DNA of 64,000 nucleotides from positions 8,666 to 72,665 of the IMG/VR virus record IMGVR_UViG_3300025322_000015; one strand, given 5' to 3'. This stretch comes from a virus. How positions within the stretch are numbered: the stretch's first letter is position 1; each line of letters starts with the position of its first letter. Made by a program: the position numbers and the translations under genes. Under the pieces are notes generated by a model, which was not told the origin of the DNA, did no database searches, and saw only the letters and a program-made list of their open reading frames with translations. Shown piece by piece: positions 8,228 to 60,428 of this stretch.

Positions 8228-9059
8228 TCAACGTACTCCAGAATTTCCCGTCGTTGATTTCGTCAGTACTCCATTGGCAATACGCCAAATCGTTCAGTAT
8301 AGCGTTAACTTCTTCTGCACTTGCCTCCTTTGGTGAAATTACGTCTTCCAGTGTCCGCGATGATATTCCAGCAGTGACAGCATCGCCGAGACAGATTGCA
8401 GGAATGCCGGCAGTTATCGCCTCCATGACAGCATTGCTGCCATAGGTAACCATCGCATGCGCGCCACGAAGATCATCGAGAATATTGTATTCCGTCGAGA
8501 AATCACTGCCAGGAAGTTTCTCAGCGTGGTGCCAGGATTTCTTCGGACGGTACAAAACCTTACGGTCGGTAATCTTCGCAAGCCGATCAACAACATCTTG
8601 CCAATACGGCGTGGGATGTTCGAGGTGGTGAAACATATGATACTTCAAGCTGGATCCCGCGATCAGCACGTGACCCTTCTTTGTCTTCGGACGCCAGCCT
8701 TTGAAGCACCAACCTTCCGCTTCCCTACGATCAGAAGGTGAGTTCAACTTGCCGAGGTACTTCGTGGGTTGGTGGCCTCCATAAGAAATCTTCCACCAAT
8801 TCTTCTCACGGTTGTAGGGCTTGTCGAAGTAGATGTACGGAACGCCCGCCTTGTCGCAGTTGCCGGAAAGGAACACCTGCTTCACGCCGATGAACCCGAC
8901 GACATCGAACTGCGTAACATCTTCGATATAGCCAAGACAATGCACCTCCCAGCCGTGCATCTCCGCGCCGCGTTTGAAAGCCTGGCCTAAGGCGTATTCT
9001 AATTCTTTCCAACCACCACGCTCGGGTCGCTTCTCGGGAACCTGGAAACCTATCTTCAT
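8196..9059 (-). CDS. GT-B / capsule-synthesis (KpsS/KpsC-like) glycosyltransferase paralog 3
   Basis: VLYRPK, MVTYGSNAVMEAITAGIP, LAYCQW; ATGA overlap at the start. Confidence 0.6.
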   Translation of the reverse strand: MKIGFQVPEKRPERGGWKELEYALGQAFKRGAEMHGWEVHCLGYIEDVTQFDVVGFIGVKQVFLSGNCDKAGVPYIYFDKPYNREKNWWKISYGGHQPTKYLGKLNSPSDRREAEGWCFKGWRPKTKKGHVLIAGSSLKYHMFHHLEHPTPYWQDVVDRLAKITDRKVLYRPKKSWHHAEKLPGSDFSTEYNILDDLRGAHAMVTYGSNAVMEAITAGIPAICLGDAVTAGISSRTLEDVISPKEASAEEVNAILNDLAYCQWSTDEINDGKFWSTLNGCVQIRKAL

Positions 9060-12670: not shown

Positions 12671-13671
12671 CAGAGATCTCGAATGATTGCAGCTTCCAGA
12701 ACACCCTCGACGTAGTAGACACAGACGACGGCCCCATCCGATCGAGCGAACAGTTGAGGATACCCAAAGTCTCGACAGCCAACCAACTTAATGACGTGCG
12801 TCCGCCAGGTCTGTCCTTTGGTGTAGTCCGAGACCGCTACCATCATATTTCCAGTAGACCGATTACCGTACGCAGCAATCAACCTACCCTGATGCGAAAG
12901 CAATGCGGGAGGGTTACCGTTATGGTCCCCAGTCACAGCTACTATCTCAGTCCGCGTGCGCCACGAGACTCCTTGATTGTCGGAGACGTATGCTGAGATC
13001 CAGCTCTGCTTATTCAATCTACGTCGGCAAAGAACGATAATCTCGTTATCAAGAGCGGCGGCGGCGGGCATCACCTGCCTACTACCATCTCCATAATCAG
13101 GCAACTCCGATATCTCGAAGAACGGCGTGTATTTTCCACGTTGTGCGACAACTACACGATCGCTACCAAACACACCTTTATGCGCGTGCGAGAGAAAGAC
13201 GAGATCACCCAGCTGGCAGGTTCGAGTAGTACAGATACGCTTTCCGCCCTTGGTCAAATCTAAATCTTCGATAAGGAAAGGACCAGCCCAGTTGTATCCT
13301 TTGTCATTCGAGTAGTAGAAAGCTCCCCGAGGATCACAGGCCTCGCCACCGTGATCGTAGAATCCACAAAACCGTAGAATTGAACTATCAGGTTCTGCTT
13401 CTCCTAAAGATTGATAGACGTGTCTGGGATCCGCACCTTCAAAATCAACATCAGGTAAGGTGCTGATCCAACTCTCTCCACCGTCCTTACTGCGAAAGAG
13501 AAACTTCTGAAGAATACCAGTAACCTTGTGCATACTCTTTATAGTAGTATCACGCATGCCGACAGCAGCACCGAAAAGTAATTCATCTCCCCATTGCCAA
13601 TGCCCGTGGTTCGCCGGCCAGCCAAAGAACAAGGTCGACGAATTGGTAATGCGAACAAAATCAACTTTCAT
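12670..13671 (-). CDS. sialidase-like BNR/Asp-box beta-propeller
   Basis: Asp boxes RSKDGGESW, YSNDKGYNW, VSDNQGVSW; C-terminal DFGYP..VCVYY. Confidence 0.8.
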   Translation of the reverse strand: MKVDFVRITNSSTLFFGWPANHGHWQWGDELLFGAAVGMRDTTIKSMHKVTGILQKFLFRSKDGGESWISTLPDVDFEGADPRHVYQSLGEAEPDSSILRFCGFYDHGGEACDPRGAFYYSNDKGYNWAGPFLIEDLDLTKGGKRICTTRTCQLGDLVFLSHAHKGVFGSDRVVVAQRGKYTPFFEISELPDYGDGSRQVMPAAAALDNEIIVLCRRRLNKQSWISAYVSDNQGVSWRTRTEIVAVTGDHNGNPPALLSHQGRLIAAYGNRSTGNMMVAVSDYTKGQTWRTHVIKLVGCRDFGYPQLFARSDGAVVCVYYVEGVLEAAIIRDL

Positions 13672-47653: not shown

Positions 47654-48469
47654 CTACTCGTCGTCCATCTTCGAAGAGAGCGCCTTGCTGAGGCCGCCTT
47701 CTTCCTTCATGATCCGCAGCGTGTGGCGGAAGTCGGCGCGAACGGTCGTGACAGTCATATTACTGATCGTATCGAAACCCTTCTCCTTGAGAGCGTCGGT
47801 GAGGTTCTCGACCGATATCTGCGGGTCGCCGAGCATGATCTTCTTGATGCTCGCCGTGACACCCTGCGCACCCGAGCGCTTGCCGGCCTTGGCTTCGGGC
47901 TTGGCAGCCTTCTTATCGGACTTGGCAGACTTCTCGTCCTTCTTGCCCTTCTTCTTCGGAGCCTCGTCTTCGTCGTCGTCCTCGGTCTCCTCCTCTTCCT
48001 TCTCTTCCTCTTCCTCTTCGTCGTCGTCCTTCGCCTTCTTCTTCGCCGGCTTCTTCTCTTCCTTCGCCGGCTTCTTATCTTCCTTGGCTTTCTCCTTGCC
48101 CTTCTTCTTCGCCGGCTTCTCTTCTTCTTCTTCTTCCTCGCCGTCCTCTTCTTCCTCGGTCTCCTCTTCCTCGTCGTCGTCCTTCTTGGACTTCTTCTTC
48201 GCCGGCTTCTCTTCTTCTTCTTCCTCGCCCTCTTCTTCCTCGTCTTCCTTGTCCTTCGGGAAGTCGGGGATATCCTTCTTCGCCTTGGCCTTCTTGGCCG
48301 CGTCGTTTGCCCACTTCTGCGCCGCCTCGGAAAGCTCAGCCCAGCCGTCATCGTCGAGATCGTCGATGGCCTTGAGAGCCCGAGCGAGATAATCGTCCCG
48401 ACCTTCGCTGGATTTCTGCTTCTTGAGTTTCAGCGCTTTGACGAGTTCGGCTTCGACTTTCGATACCAT
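47654..48469 (-). CDS. block-charged E/K low-complexity protein with small folded termini
   Basis: Repeats of EEEEKPAKKK; helical N- and C-terminal domains. Confidence 0.75.
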   Translation of the reverse strand: MVSKVEAELVKALKLKKQKSSEGRDDYLARALKAIDDLDDDGWAELSEAAQKWANDAAKKAKAKKDIPDFPKDKEDEEEEGEEEEEEKPAKKKSKKDDDEEEETEEEEDGEEEEEEEKPAKKKGKEKAKEDKKPAKEEKKPAKKKAKDDDEEEEEEKEEEETEDDDEDEAPKKKGKKDEKSAKSDKKAAKPEAKAGKRSGAQGVTASIKKIMLGDPQISVENLTDALKEKGFDTISNMTVTTVRADFRHTLRIMKEEGGLSKALSSKMDDE

Positions 48470-56153: not shown

Positions 56154-56576
56154 CTATATACTACGCGCAGCCAGCGCTGTTAGAATCACTGCGTAGAAGC
56201 CCCAGTACTTCGGAGCCAGGCTGGTCGAGTTGATCTCAGTCACGACACCGTAAACTAACACCTGAGGATCGTTGTTCGCATCGGCGACAGCCTCTGCAAA
56301 GGTCTTGAATTCACGACGGTCCTTGGGCACGCCTCGGCCGACGTTACGAACGGTCGTGAAATACTTTGCAGCGATCAGAACACCAACCTCGTGATCGTCC
56401 ACAGCATATGCCCGACCGTCCCCATACTTGAAAGACTCAGGATCGGATAGGATAATCTTGAAGCACTCAACAGAAGCAAGATCGCCGTGATCGGCAACAA
56501 GCTTGTCCCATTTCTTCTGAGCAGTCTTGCCTGGGACCTTCGCCCAGGATTTGTATACACGAATTGCCATCTTCAT
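56154..56576 (-). CDS. early hypothetical protein
   Basis: CAGGAG SD. Confidence 0.75.
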   Translation of the reverse strand: MKMAIRVYKSWAKVPGKTAQKKWDKLVADHGDLASVECFKIILSDPESFKYGDGRAYAVDDHEVGVLIAAKYFTTVRNVGRGVPKDRREFKTFAEAVADANNDPQVLVYGVVTEINSTSLAPKYWGFYAVILTALAARSI

Positions 56577-56602
56577 CTCCTGTTGTGTGCGTCTGCCTAT
56601 GC

Positions 56603-56635
56603 ATTATGTGTAAGGTAAAGCGCCTACTTACGCAA
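56603..56635 (-). promoter_or_regulatory. phage early promoter copy 3
   Basis: TTGCGT-N17-TACACATAAT. Confidence 0.8.
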
Positions 56636-56688
56636 GCGCCCTTTTGTATATGAAAGAAAATAGTGGCCCAGTCTCCTGGGCCACCTTA

Positions 56689-57789: not shown

Positions 57790-57807
57790 GACTAACTCCT
57801 ACTTGAT

Positions 57808-57884
57808 CGGGATGCCTCATCGGGCCGTGAGCTCCCACCTCACAACGACCATCGGGGAAGCTTTCGCTTCCCCTAGGTTTCGGC
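57808..57884 (-). ncRNA. type II hammerhead ribozyme HHR-A (U4C core)
   Basis: gcc GAAAC-stemIII(GAAA loop)-GUC | 8-bp stem I-CCGAUGA-ggc; loop I UGGGA pairs with the 3' tail UCCCG; predicted cut between 57847 and 57846. Confidence 0.85.
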
Positions 57885-58299: not shown

Positions 58300-58317
58300 T
58301 TTCTAATCCTGTGTAGT

Positions 58318-58396
58318 TGAGATGCCTCATCGGGCCGGGGTCTCTCACACCTCAGCGATCATCGGGGGCAGCTTTCGCCACCCCCTAGATTTCGGC
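58318..58396 (-). ncRNA. type II hammerhead ribozyme HHR-B (U4C core)
   Basis: gcc GAAAU-stemIII-AUC | stem I-CCGAUGA-ggc; loop I UGAGA pairs with UCUCA; predicted cut between 58357 and 58356. Confidence 0.85.
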
Positions 58397-58699
58397 TTAC
58401 TTCGTCGGATACTTTACGGCGTGCAGTTCTAGGAAGCGCTTGCACTCGGCAGCTTGGTAAGCTGCGCGATTGCGATACATCTGAGCAGCGTCGAGGTCAC
58501 CGTCGACCTCTGCATGCTTGACCCTATTCTCATACTTTGCAGCTAGGGTACAATGTGCCTTCGCGTCGTTTAGGCTAACGATACACCAGACGCCTTTCCA
58601 GGTCACCTTCTCACCGCACCTCTCGGTACCTTCCCCAGCTAAAACCGTTGGGACTGTAAGCAGTACAACTGAAGCAGCGAGGGCGATAACTTTAAGCAT
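58397..58699 (-). CDS. small secreted Cys-containing protein flanked by HHR-C and HHR-B
   Basis: Signal peptide MLKVIALAASVVLLTVPTVLA; four Cys. Confidence 0.75.
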   Translation of the reverse strand: MLKVIALAASVVLLTVPTVLAGEGTERCGEKVTWKGVWCIVSLNDAKAHCTLAAKYENRVKHAEVDGDLDAAQMYRNRAAYQAAECKRFLELHAVKYPTK

Positions 58700-58714
58700 C
58701 TTCTACTCCTGTGA

Positions 58715-58789
58715 ATGAGCTGTCTTATTCAAGCCGGGTAGCTCATCTCCCGACGACCTTCGAGGAATTTTTTTCCTCTAGGTTTCGAC
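58715..58789 (-). ncRNA. type II hammerhead ribozyme HHR-C (U3-A8 core with a 1-nt insertion)
   Basis: guc GAAAC-stemIII-GUC | stem I-UUGAAUAA-gac; loop I AUGAGCU pairs with AGCUCAU; predicted cut between 58755 and 58754. Confidence 0.8.
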
Positions 58790-59022
58790 TTTTCGTCTTC
58801 TCCGGTGTGCTTTCGCGGCCGGTAGGTTTAAGGTCCAGGAAGTCCTTTTTCTTTTTATCGTGAGCTTCTTTTGATGTTCCCAGCTTCCGCTCCGTTCGGT
58901 GCCTGGTTCCCCTTCTCGGGTCGGTAGTCCTCTCTACCGTCTTCTCTAGTCGCTGGTCGGGCCTGGAGCCTTTCCTTTCGGAGCCTTGAGGGGTCTTTCG
59001 ACACTTGCTCTGCAGCTCCGAT
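58790..59022 (-). ncRNA. structured purine-rich leader / candidate ncRNA
   Basis: Several hairpins (GUC-GAAA-GAC, CGGUAG-AGAGGA-CUACCG, CCGG..GC-GAAA-GC..CCGG), A-rich linkers, no credible ORF; TSS approximate. Confidence 0.55.
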
Positions 59023-59028
59023 AAATAC

Positions 59029-59057
59029 AATATAGTAACTTCTTTGTAGTAATGCAA
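59029..59057 (-). promoter_or_regulatory. sigma70-type promoter of the ribozyme operon
   Basis: TTGCAT-N17-TATATT with an AT-rich upstream tract. Confidence 0.75.
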
Positions 59058-59201
59058 TACCTTTTATATAAAATAAAGCAAAAAAACTAAAAAGATTTTA
59101 CTACCCCGGAATATACTTGCTCTGCTTGAATATCTTTGCTGTCTATCCGTTGTATTTAAGACCAACTACAACCTTTTGCAATAAAAAACCTTGTCGAATA
59201 C

Positions 59202-59577: not shown

Positions 59578-59617
59578 TTTCTTCTCCTGTGAGTTGTTGT
59601 AAGCTTGCTGCCTACTC

Positions 59618-59650
59618 ATTATATGTAAGCTAAAGTTACTATCAACGCAA
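59618..59650 (-). promoter_or_regulatory. phage early promoter copy 4
   Basis: TTGCGT-N17-TACATATAAT. Confidence 0.8.
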
Positions 59651-59670
59651 GCAAATACTTTACGTCATAC

Positions 59671-59699
59671 AAATAAAAAGCCCCACCTTTCGGTAGGGC
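59671..59699 (-). terminator. intrinsic terminator
   Basis: GCCCTACC-GAAA-GGTGGGGC followed by TTTTT. Confidence 0.85.
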
Positions 59700-59709
59700 C
59701 TCTGTTTGA

Positions 59710-59880
59710 TCAGAAGCTGAAGTGTTTTTCAGTGTACCGATTTAGCGTATATTCATCTTCGCAACCGGCCATAAAACCCTCTTCGATAACTTGCCGGACC
59801 TCGTCCTCAGCAGCGTCAGGAAAGTTCCGAAGAATGCGAGCAAGCACTGTATCCAAAATCTTCATTTGCTCTTCGTTCAT
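59710..59880 (-). CDS. 56-aa acidic early protein (not in ORF track)
   Basis: GGAG SD; sits between its own promoter and terminator; MNEEQMKILD...KHFSF. Confidence 0.75.
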   Translation of the reverse strand: MNEEQMKILDTVLARILRNFPDAAEDEVRQVIEEGFMAGCEDEYTLNRYTEKHFSF

Positions 59881-59912
59881 AATCTTTCTCCGTTGTGTTT
59901 GTCTGCCTATGC

Positions 59913-59945
59913 ATTATATGTAAAGTATAATTACTACTTACACAA
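59913..59945 (-). promoter_or_regulatory. phage early promoter copy 5
   Basis: TTGTGT-N17-TACATATAAT. Confidence 0.8.
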
Positions 59946-59964
59946 GAAATACTTTAAATCAAAC

Positions 59965-59993
59965 AAAGAAAAAGCCCCACCTTTCGGCAGGGC
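59965..59993 (-). terminator. intrinsic terminator
   Basis: GCCCTGCC-GAAA-GGTGGGGC followed by TTTTT. Confidence 0.85.
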
Positions 59994-60016
59994 TTCTCTC
60001 TACTCGAGGGCGATTA

Positions 60017-60301
60017 TTACCACCCAAAAACTTCGATTATCCTCGAAACGGTGTGAGCAGCTTGCTCACGCTCCCAATTGAACATCCGCACGATATTCTC
60101 GAAGTTCTGAATGGCCGCCTCCATGCGCTCGGCATCCAGGTCTGTATAAATGATCAGACCGTTCACTGGAGTCTGCGCTAACCCGATAGCTGTGAGCGCG
60201 ACCGCCTCGTTCACCGCACACACGTTGTGCTCGGCAAACTCGATCTCGGCCGCAAGTTCAACAAGGCGTGCAGCTATCTGGGTATTTGTAGGGTTGGTCA
60301 T
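60017..60301 (-). CDS. early hypothetical protein
   Basis: CAGGAGAAG SD. Confidence 0.8.
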   Translation of the reverse strand: MTNPTNTQIAARLVELAAEIEFAEHNVCAVNEAVALTAIGLAQTPVNGLIIYTDLDAERMEAAIQNFENIVRMFNWEREQAAHTVSRIIEVFGW

Positions 60302-60336
60302 TTTCTTCTCCTGTGTATATAGGCTACTGCCTACTC

Positions 60337-60369
60337 ATTATGTGTAAGCTATAATCCATACTAACGCAA
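60337..60369 (-). promoter_or_regulatory. phage early promoter copy 6
   Basis: TTGCGT-N17-TACACATAAT. Confidence 0.8.
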
Positions 60370-60390
60370 GAGAATACTTTACTTCAAACA

Positions 60391-60417
60391 AATAAAAATC
60401 CCAATCTTTCGACTAGG
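60391..60417 (-). terminator. intrinsic terminator after the helicase
   Basis: CCTAGTC-GAAA-GATTGGG followed by ATTTTTATT. Confidence 0.7.
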
Positions 60418-60428
60418 CTGAAGGAGCT

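Follow-up and report, generated by a model that had tools for sequence, protein, structure and literature searches.

The window analysed here is a 64,000-nucleotide (nt) stretch of the virus record IMGVR_UViG_3300025322_000015 (positions 8,666 to 72,665), part of a 72.7-kb IMG/VR phage contig, and all of its genes lie on the minus strand. Our subject is a 268-nt RNA encoded on that strand at 59022-58755, within a region of about 320 nt that holds no credible gene between a promoter and the gene for a 100-amino-acid (aa) protein. An initial annotation, made from the letters of the window alone, had described it as a structured, purine-rich RNA running from a sigma70 promoter to the cleavage site of a hammerhead ribozyme, HHR-C. 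The surrounding features are as follows.

59619-59242, minus strand: gene for a 125-aa protein, the neighbour upstream of the element
59233-59210, minus strand: intrinsic terminator closing the upstream 125-aa gene
About 59058-59085, minus strand: A/T-rich stretch preceding the promoter
59057-59029, minus strand: sigma70-type promoter TTGCAT-N17-TATATT, read directly and with its hexamers kept in relatives
59022, minus strand: predicted transcription start, an A 7 nt after the -10 hexamer, in an invariant alignment column (alignments A5 and A7)
58710-58706, minus strand: Shine–Dalgarno (SD) sequence AGGAG ahead of the 100-aa gene
58699-58397, minus strand (ATG at 58699): gene for the 100-aa signal-peptide protein, the first cistron past the cut
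Near 56685-56650, minus strand: terminator after the third gene (366 aa)

Past the 100-aa gene, a spacer of 97 nt leads to a 137-aa gene and a second spacer to the gene for a 366-aa membrane protein, so that the full order reads promoter, 268-nt leader, hammerhead C, 100-aa gene, hammerhead B, 137-aa gene, hammerhead A, 366-aa gene and terminator. The element is the non-coding head of one early phage transcription unit of about 2.4 kb. The promoter is the one that the initial annotation had named; its hexamers are invariant or nearly so in all eight aligned relatives, with a spacing of 16-17 nt and a variable spacer sequence. A consensus promoter scan did not list it, because its -35 hexamer agrees with TTGACA at only three of six positions. 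The spacing and the conservation of the A at 59022 make that nucleotide the likely start of the RNA.

The element was found in nine further metagenomic phage loci, amounting to about eight distinct sequences (L002, L004, L005, L021, L022, L023/24, L025/26 and L029-31). The IMG/VR locus L002 was reached through a helicase gene 1.4 kb upstream, and the others were reached through the two flanking small proteins, by protein-database and contig look-ups. Every relative carries the element together with its promoter, and the same 100-aa gene follows the leader at each locus whose sequence extends downstream. The upstream side varies: the promoter is preceded by an inserted gene of 47 aa in L025 and of 80 aa in L030. 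The element is single-copy in the window's own contig. Searches beyond these loci returned little: no DNA match to the leader or to its 7-kb surroundings was found among GenBank phage records, in which the best helicase relatives reach no more than about 31% identity; 17-19-mer scans of the invariant core across viral, metagenome and genome collections gave chance matches only, the L002/L008 contig excepted; a gapped pattern, although it fits L002 when applied locally, retrieved nothing from the collection; and scans of viral contigs with the 125-aa or 100-aa protein singly returned no relative, a profile scan recovering the L002 contig alone. In L027 and L028, more distant phages in which the 125-aa protein family persists, the genes are tightly packed and leave no room for such a leader. 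The leader family is rare and confined to one phage clade.

Within this clade, the leader changes more slowly than its surroundings. The first 231 nt are 94.8% identical to L005, compared with 68% and 67% for the flanking genes; the corresponding values are 99.1% against 93.9% and 74% for L004, and 70.6% against 64% and 53% for L002. In L005, the block of high identity has the same extent as the RNA domain; identity is lower in the promoter region (84%) and in the hammerhead (77%). From P4 to the start of J6/2 (segments defined below), nine sequences differ at no more than a few loop positions. Judging from these identities, purifying selection acts more strongly on the 5′ part of the leader than on the proteins encoded next to it.

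The leader fold was derived with RNAalifold on eight sequences and then refined manually on nine (alignment A7). It comprises the following segments.

59021-58978, minus strand: P1 domain, an irregular long hairpin from nt 2, with a cap hairpin at 59004-58992 closed by a GAAA tetraloop
58976-58969 and 58966-58962, minus strand: 5′ strands of P2 and P2′, respectively, whose partner is 58839-58824
58961-58940, minus strand: joining strand J2/4, variable in its 5′ half, with a conserved GAGAAGA in its 3′ half and no supported pairing
58939-58922, minus strand: P4, a 6-bp hairpin with the hexaloop AGAGGA (AGGGGA in three relatives)
58920-58880, minus strand: near-invariant core, consisting of P5 (CCC-GANAA-GGG, 58920-58910), GAA and P6
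58906-58880, minus strand: P6, CCAG..CUGG, with an inner CCG/CGG hairpin and a 7-nt loop
58879-58840, minus strand: J6/2, a conserved GAACAUCAARRGAAG followed by a variable A-rich linker with a 12-14-nt indel
58839-58835 and 58833-58824, minus strand: 3′ strands of P2′ and P2, respectively, the only pyrimidine-rich piece of the RNA
58822-58802, minus strand: P8, a CCGG/CCGG stem enclosing a GNRA-capped insert of variable length
58801-58790, minus strand: A/G-rich linker AGAAGACGAAAA between P8 and the hammerhead, varying in length by 1-2 nt

Across alignment A7, the 47 leader pairs are 97.2% paired and 12 of them have changes on both sides, in support of the structured RNA that the initial annotation had described; sliding the 3′ partners by 1-3 columns as a control left 26-58% paired, with at most three compensatory pairs. 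For the whole element, the number of compensatory pairs is 20, which was matched by none of 500 shuffles. The exact 268-nt RNA, folded alone, has z = -2.9 and none of 200 shuffles was as stable; its single-sequence minimum free energy (MFE) fold recovers P1, P2, P4, P5, P8 and stem III of the hammerhead. It is the minus strand that folds, because some of the pairs are G:U, and these would read C:A on the opposite strand. The compensatory changes indicate that nt 1-232 fold into a defined, maintained structure.

In this structure, P2/P2′ closes a junction that carries the P4 hairpin and the P5-P6 core, which is near-invariant over about 55 nt. The long-range P2/P2′ helix forms 13-15 bp in nine of nine sequences (RNAduplex), with four pairs changed on both sides. 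P1 is supported by a C:G to A:U change at its second pair (three sequences) and a U:A to C:G change in the cap stem (four or five sequences). P4 is 100% paired and three of its pairs flip between C:G and G:C in L002, L021 and L022; the AGAGGA-loop hairpin that the initial annotation had pointed out is thus real. In the core at 58920-58880, loop positions alone vary among the nine sequences. P8 shows G:C to A:U in four sequences and C:G to U:A in one; its loop is GAAA, GCAA, GCGA or GAGA, and its insert is 10 nt longer in four relatives.

The GNRA-capped hairpins proposed initially were borne out in part. GAAA caps are present at 59004-58992 and within 58822-58802, but a third hairpin, UCC-GAAA-GGA, was rejected because covariation assigns its bases to two long-range helices, P1 and P2. 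An MFE pairing of the 5′ end with ACGAUAAA was also discarded, as that segment is missing in five of nine relatives, and a small P7 hairpin from RNAalifold was replaced by the covarying 5-bp P2′. The P4 loop contains GAGAGGAC, in common with the sarcin-ricin loop; this likeness was set aside since P4 has no closing C, a universally fixed position varies (AGGGGA, three relatives) and the covariation fits a plain hexaloop. Ideas of a signal recognition particle-like or 6S-like RNA found no support in Rfam and were dropped. As a separate observation, the P1 cap hairpin GUC-GAAA-GAC (58992-59004) and hammerhead stem II (58722-58789) are built from identical three-base strands, GUC and GAC; both change jointly to GCC/GGC in L025 and L002, although not in L005, L021 and L022, which may be coincidence or a possible alternative pairing.

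At its 3′ end, the leader runs into HHR-C, laid out as follows.

58789-58714, minus strand: type II hammerhead HHR-C, in the order stem II strand, GAAA, stem III, UC, stem I, core, stem II strand
58789-58787, minus strand: 5′ strand of stem II, GUC
58786-58783, minus strand: GAAA
58783-58756, minus strand: stem III
58755, minus strand: C17, with the predicted cut between 58755 and 58754
58754-58733, minus strand: stem I
58732-58725, minus strand: core, UUGAAUAA
58724-58722, minus strand: 3′ strand of stem II, GAC
58721-58714, minus strand: pseudoknot tail

Over eight sequences (alignment A8), the 26 pairs of HHR-C are 96% paired and nine are compensatory. Stem II, which is open whereas stems I and III are capped, has 3 bp, two of them covarying (GUC/GAC, GCC/GGC and CUC/GAG). 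Stem III has nine pairs, of which five covary: 15.2:16.2 (C:G or U:A) and four in the distal part. The 6 bp of stem I are invariant. A pseudoknot of 6-8 bp joins loop I to the 3′ tail, with a G:C to C:G compensation in L031. GAAA, A15.1:U16.1 and G10.1:C11.1 do not vary, and C17 stands at the cut (A in L005). The core 3:8 pair itself covaries, being C3:G8 in L005, which has the canonical core CUGAAGA, and U3:A8 elsewhere; L025, L002 and L021 have the 7-nt core UUGAYAA, and the window, L004, L023 and L031 share UUGAAUAA, of 8 nt with U3/A8, where the type II standard is the 7-nt strand C3 U4 G5 A6 N7 G8 A9. On Hammerhead_II (RF02276) of Rfam, three copies in relatives score 26-27 bits, below the 37-bit gathering threshold, the homologue of HHR-C in L025 reaching 26.3 bits (E = 0.12); the window copy differs from that family in its 8-nt core and gives no Rfam hit. 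With a pattern scan, two further copies were recovered in the operon (58396 and 57884), whereas shuffled sequence yielded none.

Type II hammerheads are often grouped between prophage genes, have a loop I/tail pseudoknot and show natural U3:A8 covariation (PMC3088659). Those described by Perreault et al. 2011 (PMC3088659) resemble HHR-C in permutation, short open stem II, pseudoknot, U3:A8 and the presence of several copies separating the cistrons of one phage operon; the difference is that the first ribozyme here follows a structured non-coding RNA of about 230 nt, not a gene. Given its covarying fold, HHR-C is a type II hammerhead with a well-supported structure. Cleavage would fall after C17 (58755) and give an RNA of 59022-58755, the limits at which the initial annotation had already placed it.

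Several observations on these ribozymes stand beside this assignment. The hammerhead-like elements B and A (58300-58396 and 57800-57884, minus strand) begin where the 100-aa and 137-aa genes, respectively, end, immediately past the stop codon. Their core, CCGAUGA with C at position 4, is kept in all relatives (as CCGAAGA in two), and homologues of these elements in L021 and L025 score 26.8-26.9 bits on Hammerhead_II. L002 has a fourth hammerhead copy, at 12740, with the core UUGAUAA. The pseudoknot tail AGCUC (58701-58721, minus strand) pairs either with loop I or, in an RNAalifold model, with GGAGU of the SD of the 100-aa gene; the latter pairing could couple the fold of the ribozyme to ribosome access, and is of 4 bp only, without covariation.

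The last 35 nt of the 268-nt RNA belong to the hammerhead. The extra 230 nt must have a function of their own, because neither hammerhead B nor hammerhead A needs a leader and a minimal one of about 40 nt would suffice for the ribozyme. We propose that HHR-C cuts after C17 and so would split the leader from the messenger RNA (mRNA), leaving the leader with a 5′-triphosphate and a 2′,3′-cyclic phosphate and the mRNA with a 5′-hydroxyl and a terminal stem I hairpin. The released RNA would be paired from its second to its second-last nucleotide; because its helices start at nt 2 and end one nt before the 3′ end, and because it is low in U, it should resist end-dependent and RNase E-type decay. 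Such an RNA should accumulate early in infection, and its invariant single-stranded core would then most likely bind a conserved macromolecule of the host or the phage and in this way act in trans. Of the readings considered, this one, a stable early RNA working in trans with a conserved partner bound at the invariant core, is the most likely, and we hold it with about even confidence.

A number of points weigh against this reading. The core of the window hammerhead, UUGAAUAA, has 8 nt where 7 are usual, and in a published hammerhead variant an insertion after A6 reduced activity (PMC3088659); the 8-nt core has nonetheless been kept in four lineages. At E ≤ 10, Rfam detects no hammerhead anywhere in the window. 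The comparison draws on only about eight distinct sequences from one narrow phage clade, and several of the compensatory changes are common to one sub-clade, so that independent events are fewer than alignment cells. The P5 and P6 helices are predicted only; they never vary, and covariation thus cannot test them. Finally, the constant linkage to the same downstream gene would fit a role in cis equally well.

In such a cis role, which we rank second and at clearly lower confidence, the leader would act before or through cleavage, by modifying or protecting the transcribing polymerase (put- or nut-like antitermination, shielding from Rho) or as a ligand or protein aptamer that sets the fold of the hammerhead and with it what becomes of the downstream mRNA, and the freed fragment would be a by-product. 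The leader does sit right after a strong early promoter, at the head of a 2.3-kb operon without an internal terminator, and its first gene is constant while its upstream neighbour varies; moreover, near-invariance of the core is also typical of aptamers, and RNAalifold offers the alternative pairing of the pseudoknot tail with the SD. However, no conserved alternative helix links leader and hammerhead, no Rfam riboswitch or leader family matches, hammerheads B and A operate in the same operon without a leader, and after a fast cut the leader could no longer act on the mRNA in cis. The antitermination variant can be examined more closely. A nut leader combines boxA with boxB, the latter a hairpin of about 5 bp with a GNRA-like pentaloop. 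The leader shares with the nut boxB of lambda and P22 and the put sites of HK022 a position directly after an early promoter, and the GANAA pentaloop of P5 recalls boxB. Against this, the leader does not qualify as a nut-type site: P5 is a CCC/GGG stem of just 3 bp, and nothing resembling boxA occurs in the leader, whose 10% U would not accommodate a U-rich boxA. In addition, the leader is far larger and more complex than lambdoid nut and put leaders and is followed by a self-cleaving ribozyme.

We regard it as very improbable that the conserved block is a recently exchanged DNA segment, or an element acting at the DNA level (a replication origin, or an R-loop site on a tract with purine/pyrimidine asymmetry), rather than a functional RNA. 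Phage genomes are mosaic, identity to L004 is high (94%) over the whole upstream side, and purine-rich transcripts favour R-loops. In L005, however, the 94.8% block matches the RNA domain and both flanks fall to 67-84%, and distant relatives keep the helices by compensatory changes and G:U pairs, which only a fold in RNA (or in a single strand) explains. There is no inflection of GC skew at the locus, and a replication origin was rejected on that ground.

The function suggested in the initial annotation, a sponge that titrates CsrA or RsmA through GGA loops or a decoy that titrates Hfq through (ARN)n tracts, fared poorly and seems to us highly unlikely. The purine bias on which it drew was confirmed: the 268-nt RNA contains 36.9% A, 28.4% G, 25.0% C and 9.7% U, and the leader region lies about 2.3-2.8 standard deviations above the window mean in 200-nt windows. 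Two coding stretches, at 47.9-48.3 kb and 39.0-39.4 kb (acidic/lysine-rich), exceed it in purine richness. The 11 GGA motifs do exist, one of them in the AGAGGA hexaloop of the proven hairpin, and A/G-rich linkers are present. Yet this count compares with 8.0 ± 2.2 in mononucleotide shuffles (P = 0.13) and 10.1 ± 2.0 in dinucleotide shuffles (P = 0.41), and neither GGA, AGGA, A.GGA, SD-like words and GNRA words nor the longest ARN run (4, against 3.6-4.1) is in excess over composition-matched shuffles (P 0.13-0.8); GAAA is above the mononucleotide shuffle only. The abundance of GGA follows from base composition and holds no extra signal. Furthermore, most GGAs are buried in helices of the covariation model, the P4 loop (AGRGGA) being the only one in a proven hairpin loop, and GAUAAAAAGAAAAAGGA, the longest A-rich linker, is present in the window as annotated but absent from five of nine relatives. 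The predicted 3′ end is a ribozyme cut, which provides no terminator U-tail for the proximal face of Hfq, and Rfam gives no CsrB, RsmY or RsmZ match. The leader resembles these RNAs and Hfq-binding small RNAs in being purine-rich, GGA-containing, non-coding and a few hundred nt long, but it differs from the former in lacking GGA enrichment and a repeated array of GGA-loop hairpins, and from the latter in lacking a U-tail and ARN runs above chance. The motif evidence does not support a CsrA/RsmA-sponge or Hfq-decoy mechanism, and the proposal is a weak one. Elsewhere in the window, a 271-aa protein (47654-48469, minus strand) has a long low-complexity centre of Glu, Asp and Lys (EEEEE/KKK runs), which accounts for the purine maximum of the window (up to 87% on the coding strand).

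That the region instead encodes a protein can be dismissed almost entirely: a Lys/Arg/Glu-rich frame of 104 codons is open at 58743-59057, and gene callers annotated 93 aa (L004:2641-2922) and 88 aa (L006:2-268) inside the leader, but the sole start codon of the 104-aa frame lies within the -35 hexamer, upstream of the predicted transcript start, every relative has the frame displaced by indels (1, 2, 10 and 12-14 nt) and none of the frames is open throughout the family, Pfam gives no match, and open frames are expected at 10% T. The 93-aa and 88-aa calls look like artefacts of T-poor sequence with few stop codons, and both the 104-aa frame and a 49-aa frame were rejected as genes on comparing frames across the relatives. 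The stretch is non-coding; the 104-aa frame, which had been taken to look antisense, is actually on the same strand as the RNA (minus).

Two further observations concern the promoter region and its neighbours. The small early genes on either side, upstream and downstream (minus strand, 59600-60420 and 56570-56640; in L002, 8583-9104), are each served by a promoter of their own, share a ACAUAAUGAGUAGGCAG-like initial transcribed sequence and have terminators capped by GAAA; they form a repeated cassette of promoter and leader that is not the ribozyme-ended leader at 59022-58755. In two runs, the assembly breaks in the A/T-rich promoter region just upstream of the leader, at the end of L019 and the start of L023 (SRR21686415) and between L020 and L024. 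One and the same phage is thus spread over two contigs at this point, and repetition of early-promoter sequence is a possible cause.

Rfam 15 gave no match at gathering level in the 64 kb and, for the window and four relatives, nothing in the leader at E ≤ 10; our literature search found no account of this leader, or of any structured RNA defined by a promoter and a ribozyme. With its ribozyme, the element adds a member to an established family, and the leader is a new structured RNA without an Rfam family, as the initial annotation had offered as its second option: 12 of its pairs are compensatory and it is bounded by a promoter and a type II hammerhead. Like phi29 pRNA, GOLLD and ROOL, it is phage-encoded, highly structured, conserved and non-coding, with its own promoter. 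It differs from all three in having no sequence or structure match by Rfam and a 3′ end set by a ribozyme, and it is much smaller than GOLLD and ROOL. Speculatively, and with considerable doubt, the leader might be a small, clear and well-covarying representative of a wider class, so far undescribed, of structured non-coding phage RNAs that are made first, from early promoters, and freed by a self-cleaving ribozyme. Such RNAs would work in trans against a target in the host, for instance by decoying or inhibiting a factor of defence, decay, transcription or translation, or by binding a signalling nucleotide.

What hammerheads between phage cistrons are for is unsettled, although they have been known since 2011. 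In this operon, a separate RNA, kept by selection more strictly than the neighbouring proteins, ends in one of them, which points to an undescribed use of self-cleavage: the production, at the onset of infection, of a defined non-coding RNA with protected ends. Because the element is short (268 nt) and its fold well constrained, synthesis and testing in E. coli are feasible without the uncultured phage, and the leader offers a practical entry point to the role of ribozyme-ended early leaders.
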